NCBI GenBank assembly: GCA_963729625.1
Contig: CAVSOU010000010.1
Location: forward strand, 640,001 to 704,000
Direction of reading: 5' to 3'
Length of the DNA: 64,000 nucleotides
Origin: an uncultured bacterium
GTDB lineage: Bacteria; Chloroflexota; UBA5177; JANWHV01
Positions 32,075 to 32,501 of this stretch are shown here, in pieces (positions within the stretch are counted from its first letter, which is position 1; the number at the start of each line of letters is the position of its first letter). The translations under genes were made by a program, and so were the position numbers. Below the pieces are notes generated by a model. The model was not told where the DNA came from, ran no database searches, and worked only from the letters and a program-made list of their open reading frames with translations.

Positions 32075-32351
32075 GAGAGGGAATTGCTCACGCAACTCCC
32101 TCTCACTTGCTGGTTTACCCGCTTCAGCTCAGTGTGTCTGTTTTTACAACACCTCACGTCGGATAGAACAGCGGCCGGCCGTCAGTACGAATTAATCGCT
32201 GCCTGCGTAGCTTCGAAAGTGCAAAGGCTCAAGGGCCTATTCGTAGCGCTGGCGTTGGACCGACGACCGGCCCATTTGTGGAATCCTGCTTTCGCCCTCG
32301 GCTATTCCCGGAACGCTTGTTCCTAGCTCCATCCGGTTGGCCGAGTCGGTC
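32075..32351 (-). ncRNA. Candidate structured RNA (3' part of the small-ORF transcript)
   Basis: Nested helices (GACCGAC/GTCGGTC, GGAAC/GTTCC, GGAAT/ATTCC, TACGAAT/ATTCGTA) and a 13-bp hairpin with GUGA loop on the minus strand. Confidence 0.45.
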
Positions 32352-32405
32352 TTAATCGACCTGAAGGACTCCGAAGAAAAGGTACGGCTTCCTCAGAATA
32401 TACAT
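32352..32405 (-). CDS. Small peptide MYILRKPYLFFGVLQVD (17 aa)
   Basis: SD AAAGGAG 7 nt before ATG; near-consensus promoter about 60 nt upstream. Confidence 0.55.
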   Translation of the reverse strand: MYILRKPYLFFGVLQVD

Positions 32406-32472
32406 TGGAAGTCTCCTTTCCAGGAGGCGGATAGGAGGCTGTCAGCCTCCTTCGTGCCCTCGCACTACAATC

Positions 32473-32501
32473 ATGCTACGCCACACATATGCACATGTCA
32501 A
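32473..32501 (-). promoter_or_regulatory. Sigma70-type promoter
   Basis: TTGACA-17bp-TAGCAT on the minus strand. Confidence 0.75.

Follow-up and report, generated by a model that had tools for sequence, protein, structure and literature searches.

We report a previously undescribed family of RNAs, each encoding a micropeptide, in the phylum Chloroflexota. Its first member lies in a stretch of 64,000 nucleotides (nt) from an uncultured Chloroflexota bacterium (assembly GCA_963729625.1, contig CAVSOU010000010.1, positions 640,001 to 704,000; hereafter, the window), on the minus strand at 32075-32501, in the intergenic gap between a PQQ-like beta-propeller gene and a convergent phosphoribosyltransferase (PRTase) gene. 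The unit consists of a promoter, a leader hairpin, a Shine-Dalgarno (SD) sequence, a 17-codon open reading frame (ORF), a folded 3' domain, and a terminal hairpin (Table 1). The family is wider than this single locus; we inspected 80 non-redundant copies. Of the 401 genomes sampled, at least 73, from 30 of 82 families, carry the element, nearly all in single copy. The codon pattern indicates that the micro-ORF is under coding selection, and a GC-rich hairpin, H1, follows a conserved Asp codon at a fixed distance. We propose, with somewhat less than even confidence, that the element is a stand-alone arrest-peptide RNA that holds, and likely stores, ribosomes rather than controlling a neighbouring gene.

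The arrest peptides known so far act in cis as switches for the gene that follows them. If our proposal is correct, a conserved and abundant transcript whose sole visible role is to engage the ribosome at one codon would represent a novel type of RNA, and it would answer how bacteria without the hibernation factor HPF store their ribosomes, a question raised in a preprint (bioRxiv 10.1101/2025.11.04.686544). According to it, more than 10% of bacteria have lost an ancestral hibernation factor and must depend on alternatives not yet known. On a tamer reading, the element represents a phylum-wide micropeptide-RNA family overlooked by gene callers, Pfam, and Rfam, with a short, portable candidate arrest motif.

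Coding selection on the micro-ORF

The C-terminus of the peptide follows the family motif (F/Y/L)-G-V-(W/L/F)-Q-(V/I)-D, and the codons vary synonymously at the motif G, V, Q, V, and D. In 48 non-redundant copies, Gln is encoded by CAG or CAA only and Asp by GAC or GAT only, and both Val positions draw on all four codons. As most copies were found by their peptide, this evidence is partly circular; the same pattern was observed in 8 copies found by DNA and in 11 found by an RNA model. The pattern suggests that the micro-ORF is translated. The preliminary description of this DNA had offered a large structured non-coding RNA as one interpretation; the RNA is indeed structured, but a non-coding RNA alone is insufficient because the ORF is under coding selection.

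Conservation is packed into the last seven residues. The N-termini differ in length, with the motif Asp as residue 12-24, and the ORF has 13-28 codons in nearly all copies. The stop follows Asp directly in 23 of 69 copies, after one codon in 35, and after 2-43 codons in 11; R or K comes directly after Asp in 21 of the 69. The peptide has a basic N-terminus and a short beta-strand-like core, and it is not long or apolar enough to span a membrane; in all 69 copies, its longest stretch without a charge is 4-8 residues. In one copy (L145:108-182), the motif is duplicated in tandem and in frame, and the hairpin comes after the second, intact motif. Copies with the variant motifs GVWIVQ/GVFIVQ, GRWQID, CRWQVD, and CVWQVD (L115 and L139 of family f56; L167 and L168 of f19; L079, L081, and L121) retain the hairpin at the same offset.

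No match in Pfam was found for 11 peptides of at least 20 residues. Searches of PDB sequences returned nothing for peptide A10 and, for peptide A4, an 8-mer of rotavirus VP3 at E 1.1, which we rejected as a chance match; the ESM Atlas gave no usable match. The profile used against representative proteins was diluted by a 43-residue read-through tail, which also made one further search noisy, and its two matches were an extended call of the same ORF and one protein of 2692 amino acids. A likeness to MciZ, an FtsZ inhibitor (PF13072), was rejected, as no profile match fell on the element in five carrier genomes at E up to 10.

Position of H1 relative to the Asp codon

H1 starts 7 or 8 nt past the Asp codon in 54 of 68 copies, and its position is fixed relative to this codon and does not shift with the stop. 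Among the 42 copies with a short H1, two-sided changes were found at five of the six basal pairs. In each of the three stop classes, the unanchored pairing probability rose to 0.81-0.99 at positions +8 to +12, compared with about 0.5 in 263 control windows.

Another feature lies upstream. The motif Gly is encoded by GGA in 52 of 62 copies, in comparison with 12-14% in the long ORFs of the window's genome, and this bias places an SD-like GGAG 11 nt ahead of the Asp codon (GGAG in 54 of 69 copies; GGRG in 62). We found no common intramolecular partner for this GGAG across copies. In many single folds, bases of the ORF are paired with RNA farther downstream, but these pairings are not conserved. 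A helix enclosing H1, formed by the QVD codons and the strand that follows H1, was rejected (mean z 0.04; own pairing better than cross pairing in 34 of 68). As no conserved helix encloses H1, the Asp-to-H1 spacing lacks an explanation by a helix.

Counted from the first base of the P-site codon, H1 lies 9-10 nt away if that codon is Asp and 12-13 nt away if it is Val. According to PMC7282821, a stem-loop placed 11-12 nt from the P-site codon impedes binding at the A site. The tunnel-length motif, the upstream SD-like motif, and the entry-channel hairpin point at one ribosome position.

A CsrB-like sponge was rejected, with a single GGA motif in the element and CsrA found in none of five carrier genomes. 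Recoding (SECIS, read-through, or frameshift) was also rejected because the stops vary and no longer frame is conserved.

Promoter, leader, and RNA fold

The promoter hexamers, the SD, the ORF, and the terminal 13-bp hairpin lie on the minus strand where the preliminary description had placed them. A promoter consensus scan gave one site against 1.0 expected in 2.5-kb shuffles, which is not significant alone; a promoter-like site precedes 40 of the 69 homologues and was found in 4 of 125 control windows. The inner hairpin of the leader, also described before, showed two-sided changes at four of seven pairs (12 copies). An SD-like duplex stands ahead of the chosen start in 68 of 69 copies. The SD of the window copy had been thought to be buried in a CUCCU-GGAA-AGGAG hairpin; it is predicted to be paired, but with codons 9-11 and not in that hairpin. 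A strong hairpin with nearby U ends 61 of 69 homologues (a loose criterion, with no control set), and for the 36 copies in which both ends could be placed, the predicted RNA length is 251-410 nt (median 320). A second, near-perfect inverted repeat of about 24 bp lies just past the terminal hairpin in L132.

The 397-nt minus strand folds at -166.3 kcal/mol (z = -6.2), and none of 100 shuffles was as stable. Comparative folding of the 3' domain in eight close copies gave 31 pairs, with 95% of cells paired and two-sided changes at 10 pairs; none of 500 shuffles reached its pairing score, although relatedness inflates such counts. A second lineage shows the same layout, and the P2 loop is invariant in the two closest lineages. 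In a distant class, the domain is closed by UCAGG/CCUGA and is similar in shape but different in sequence. The 3' domain comparisons gave no single-stranded seed shared across classes. Several helices drawn earlier have to be revised: the GC-GAAA-GC hairpin is present in the window's own minimum-energy fold, whereas GGAAC/GUUCC and UACGAAU/AUUCGUA are supported neither by that fold nor by the homologues, and the 3' strand of the supposed closing helix GACCGAC-UCGGCC/GGCCGG-GUCGGUC pairs downstream instead, within P0.

Table 1. Positions of the parts of the element, its neighbouring genes, and the cover by RNA contigs (window coordinates)
Feature	Position	Strand	Remarks
-35 hexamer TTGACA	32501-32496	minus	TTGAC unchanged in 8 genus copies
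-10 hexamer TAGCAT	32478-32473	minus	17-nt spacer; predicted start near 32466
5' leader stem-loop	32463-32425	minus	inner hairpin GGAGGCU/AGCCUCC at 32450-32434
SD AGGAG	32417-32413	minus	predicted pairing with codons 9-11 in the window's lineage
micro-ORF MYILRKPYLFFGVLQVD*	32405-32352	minus	17 codons
internal SD-like GGAG (Gly codon GGA + G)	32372-32369	minus	11 nt ahead of Asp codon
hairpin H1	32345-32297	minus	first pair at +10 after Asp codon in the window copy
3' folded domain	32272-32173	minus	comparative folding
P0, 15-bp stem	32272-32259/32186-32173	minus	two-sided changes at 7 of 15 pairs
P1 stem	32253-32245/32208-32201	minus	encloses P2
P2 hairpin AGGC-CCUUGA-GCCU	32238-32225	minus	AGGC-CCYUKR-GCCU invariant in 8 close copies
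P3 side hairpin	32199-32187	minus	part of 3' domain
terminal 13-bp hairpin, predicted terminator	32104-32075	minus	weak U tail; no call by consensus terminator scan
metatranscriptome contig cover	32118-32452	not given by contigs	4 of 4 runs examined, 4 studies
PRTase gene, convergent neighbour	31464-31934	plus	Pfam PF00156; outside unit
PQQ-like beta-propeller gene, upstream neighbour	32677-34113	minus	Pfam PF13360; outside unit

Recovery in RNA libraries

Six RNA runs share words with the region. That the unit is transcribed, as the preliminary description expected, is supported by contigs in all four of the runs examined. These contigs gave no cover on 30800-32053 or 32510-34200 (2.9 kb of flanks), and the silent flanks argue against DNA carry-over without formally excluding it. 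Near-identical contig pieces included 213 nt with no differences (X1) and 146 and 153 nt with two differences (X4 and X6). Word depth reached 4461; the contigs themselves yield neither the strand nor the level of the RNA. Contigs from two runs of different studies end in adapter at 32450 and 32452, which is compatible with, but not proof of, a start near 32466. One contig (32142-32452) spans the ORF and the 3' domain together.

Distribution and gene neighbourhood

By DNA search, the element was present in all four congeners and in none of 36 other relatives; the codon pattern was found in 8 copies in five genomes of the genus and in none of 16 other genomes of the class. Twenty-one metagenome loci matched, including a second lineage next to the same PRTase gene. 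Iterated peptide profiles gave matches in 67 of the 401 sampled genomes. Among 25 newly or re-fetched matches, 22 had an SD, a short ORF, a hairpin, and nearly always a terminal hairpin, and three were chance matches; the peptide search did not see these features. A covariance model built on the ORF end and the hairpin was applied to 60 genomes; of its 14 matches inspected, 11 were real, additional copies. This model misses copies with a long H1 (the window's genome, G000, and G149 were negative); thus, every absence reported here means 'not found'. The total of 73 genomes, which is a lower bound, comprises 64 by the peptide profile (after removal of the three chance matches; six of the 64 were counted without individual inspection) and nine by the covariance model.

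We excluded as chance matches of the peptide hidden Markov model L070-L072, L075, L076, L078, L098, L101, L102, L104, L105, L112, and L113, and as further chance matches L116, L119, L120, L122-L128, L146, L147, and L149. Of the covariance-model matches left out, L169, L170, and L172 were dropped, and L173, L174, and L176 stand outside the count. An early contig scan demanded a GGAG SD and a narrow early motif; thus, its three matches say nothing on other phyla.

Some genomes have two or three copies. The window's genome has a second one (G000:C9:43644, minus strand; L008:4095-4145), divergent from a peptide ABC-transporter binding-protein gene and with a different 3' domain sequence. The convergent PRTase neighbour is kept in 17 of 27 distinct copies of the two closest lineages. 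In other lineages, the neighbours vary (hemA, ffh, acnA, ggt, RNase Z, sdhA, comEC, aspartate kinase, dps, and CDF transporters; the scan covered 61 of 129 candidate ORFs). The downstream gene is convergent in many distant copies (xylulokinase, dps, RNase Z, menA, and ggt) and co-directional in some, where it has no shared function (sdhA behind L130, an oxidoreductase behind L137, and a CDF transporter behind L144). Neither a shared downstream gene nor a co-located partner gene was found across the examined neighbourhoods, in agreement with the earlier remark that nothing downstream is available to control. As the neighbours vary and the downstream gene is often convergent, we regard the element as a stand-alone gene.

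Searches of viral contig collections gave 0, 2 (both chance), and 0 matches, tblastn against phages reached E 5 only, and plasmid collections gave none. In L019, L026, and L032, an ORF about 2.1 kb downstream of the element has an N-terminus that presumably resembles a Cas3 HD domain. Riboswitches for c-di-AMP (L133:4570-4703) and cobalamin (L027:4154-4293), 1.6-2 kb off, are unrelated to the element. The window also holds an rRNA operon with tRNA-Ile (20170-25302) and tandem tRNA-Phe and tRNA-Gly (49473-49624).

Distribution of HPF and 6S RNA

In a comparison of hand-picked genomes, in which kin are not independent and three non-carriers had been chosen as their families lacked HPF, HPF/RaiA was not found in 25 of 47 carrier genomes versus 6 of 27 genomes without detected RNA; counted by family, it went undetected in 13 of the 30 carrier families and in 3 of the 20 others (p 0.06). 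HPF was found in none of five genomes of the carrier genus versus all five tested in two sister families, in which the RNA was not found. In both sister families, hpf sits after ftsK. In the window's genome, a convergent gene, which we take from its sequence to be purL-like, lies 18 nt past ftsK in mid-contig (G000:C10:25466-27932) with no hpf there, and a six-frame search gave no HPF-like sequence. Among four HPF-negative genomes first scored as lacking the RNA as well, one (G041) proved to carry a divergent copy.

After reclassing of G041 and G044, 6S RNA was found in 2 of 32 carriers versus 12 of 28 genomes without detected RNA, and was not found in the window's genome. Two genomes (G060 and G358) have both RNAs, and 16 of the 28 non-carriers are also without detected 6S. 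As the 6S skew resembles the HPF skew, the latter may only track lineage.

Ribosome arrest and alternative explanations

In the mechanism that we propose, a ribosome on the micro-ORF would come to a halt once the final Val/Ile-Asp has reached the peptidyl-transferase centre, with the stop or one further codon in the A site. Three brakes may act at this one ribosome position: the last 7-10 residues of the nascent peptide in the exit tunnel, the internal GGAG paired with the anti-SD, and H1 at the mRNA entry channel. As there is no gene to control, the stalled complex itself may be the product. With less assurance, we suggest that the 3' domain might dock on or shield the stalled complex, that idle ribosomes might thereby be protected, and that such protection might have permitted repeated loss of HPF. 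The fullest form of the idea, RNA-based ribosome hibernation in which micropeptide arrest, aided by the internal SD and the entry-channel hairpin, and a clamp by the 3' domain let a dozen Chloroflexota families discard HPF, is doubtful. A programmed stall at the Val/Asp codons, whether it serves parking or sensing, is itself moderately probable.

A number of observations weigh against ribosome storage. One ribosome per RNA would demand very high RNA levels, and the predicted pairing of the SD in the window's lineage means that ribosome loading may be regulated or low. The Asp-to-H1 spacing falls 1 nt outside the 11-12 nt range for either choice of P-site codon, the window's own H1 begins farther out than in most copies (Table 1), the Cys-Val and Cys-Arg lineages (7 of 69 copies) have lost GGAG, and H1 is degenerate in L059. 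No sequence core of the 3' domain is common to all classes, and the minimal copy L064 (genome G347), which is followed by a gene that we take to be sirtuin-like, consists of the ORF, H1, and a terminal hairpin and has no 3' domain. The link with HPF is weak by family: 17 of 30 carrier families keep HPF, four of them as weak matches only, and three families show neither HPF nor detectable RNA in six genomes (G024 and G128 of f7, G029 and G074 of f12, and G058 and G168 of f26). These six may have a copy that diverged further, or a different hibernation system.

The same geometry would serve a sensor, in which stalling at the same site, dependent on a drug, an amino acid, or stress as in ErmBL and TnaC, changes how the 3' domain folds, how stable it is, or how it is processed, and the domain then acts in trans. 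VD(R/K) resembles the VDK motif of ErmBL, the 5' strand of P0 in the window has an alternative partner right after the stop, and pairing of ORF bases with downstream RNA is frequent in single folds. Such alternative pairings are not conserved, however, L064 has no domain to switch, no target was identified, and one RNA contig holds the ORF and the 3' domain together; we consider a sensor unlikely. The dual-function RNA of the preliminary description has held up as far as the independent transcript with a small ORF is concerned, and remains a live, if rather doubtful, rival. On this explanation, the released micropeptide would bind a conserved cellular protein, as SR1P binds GapA, the 3' domain would separately base-pair or bind protein, and the hairpins would merely stabilise the message. 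Coding-type conservation across 30 families, the in-frame duplication in L145, the basic N-terminus with its beta-strand-like core, the invariant P2 loop in the two closest lineages, and a layout like that of known dual-function RNAs all fit. It leaves unexplained why H1 is registered to the Asp codon, not the stop, and why GGA is favoured, and it finds no co-located partner gene, no conserved single-stranded seed across classes, and no likeness of the peptide in Pfam, PDB, or the ESM Atlas, that to MciZ having been rejected.

The remaining explanations leave more of the data aside. A non-coding RNA that binds RNA polymerase in the manner of 6S or Ms1, with the ORF secondary, would suit the strong promoter, the abundance in RNA libraries, and the scarcity of 6S in carriers, but no other part is as well conserved as the ORF, the fold lacks the long hairpin with its central bubble, neither 6S nor Ms1 matched in the window or 40 homologous loci, and both RNAs coexist in two genomes; it is very unlikely. 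The type I toxin mRNA suggested earlier, now with a hidden antisense antitoxin, could account for the short ORF, an SD predicted to be paired (in the window's lineage only), the long structured 3' region, and the two or three copies in some genomes. The peptides have no membrane-spanning stretch, however, antisense promoter-like sites occur in only 7 of 69 copies at scattered positions, and the element is mostly single-copy, syntenic, and not found in phage or plasmid collections, which makes a toxin highly improbable. A promoter, an SD, a short ORF, and a terminator are also the parts of a leader-peptide attenuator, and a co-directional gene does follow some copies; but the gene downstream of the window copy is convergent, as it is for 17 of 27 close copies and many of the distant ones, the co-directional genes share no function, and no antiterminator was seen. 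We give an attenuator or riboswitch for a downstream gene almost no credence. Thus, the earlier interpretation of a new, stand-alone, structured transcript encoding a peptide stands, several of its helices do not, and the registration of H1 to the Asp codon had been missed.

Comparison with known systems

The element fails membership of every known family tested. As the preliminary description had found no family for it, so a covariance-model search of Rfam 15 gave no gathering-level match on the element in the window or in 40 homologous loci, only sub-threshold chance matches; a resemblance by eye to HDV, twister, or SAM RNAs was dropped with no Rfam match. The literature consulted, supplementary files aside and including PMC11109978 and 10.64898/2026.10.21.760802, contains no account of the family, and the GVWQVD motif was not found in any paper.

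Like tmRNA and 6S, the element is an abundant stand-alone RNA of housekeeping size, and tmRNA also has an internal ORF. Unlike tmRNA, it has its own SD and start and no tRNA-like ends, and the window's genome has a normal tmRNA (contig C7) and RNase P RNA elsewhere; unlike 6S (RF00013), it has no model match and no long hairpin with a central bubble. With SR1/SR1P, SR7/SR7P, and VcdRP, it shares a stand-alone transcript of 200-400 nt with its own promoter, small ORF, and terminator, and as an independent transcript with a small ORF it has one trait of a dual-function small RNA. It differs from these in its much shorter peptide and codon-registered hairpin, in having no Rfam or Pfam relationship, and in that no target RNA or partner protein is shown here. 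The entry-channel hairpin, within 1 nt of the 11-12 nt range, and the SD-like motif upstream recall the frameshift stem-loops of dnaX and HIV (PMC7282821); unlike these, it has neither a slippery sequence nor a longer frame conserved further on, and thus no recoded product is expected.

Among arrest peptides, PepNL/NanCL of Escherichia coli, ErmBL, and TnaC are similar in design; the ORF here is likewise short, and it ends in Val/Ile-Asp at or beside the stop. PepNL (14 amino acids) arrests with tRNA-Asp in the P site, Ile13 clashing with RF2 (PMC11890864), and has stem-loops around its stop; ErmBL arrests at D10 of its VDK motif (PMC10833563). The short ORF with conserved residues proximal to the peptidyl-transferase centre, typical of arrest peptides of the upstream-ORF type, is present here, but a consistent downstream gene is not. 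PepNL, ErmBL, and TnaC are upstream ORFs that control pepN, ermB, and tnaA behind them, whereas the present element ends in a terminal hairpin of its own, includes a separate folded 3' domain, and is followed by no gene that the copies share. The likeness to them comes with no shown sequence relationship, and stalling here is predicted. With HPF/RaiA (PF02482), the element shares the proposed role of holding idle ribosomes; HPF, which many carriers keep, is a protein that blocks empty ribosomes, whereas the agent proposed here would be a complex of mRNA and peptidyl-tRNA.
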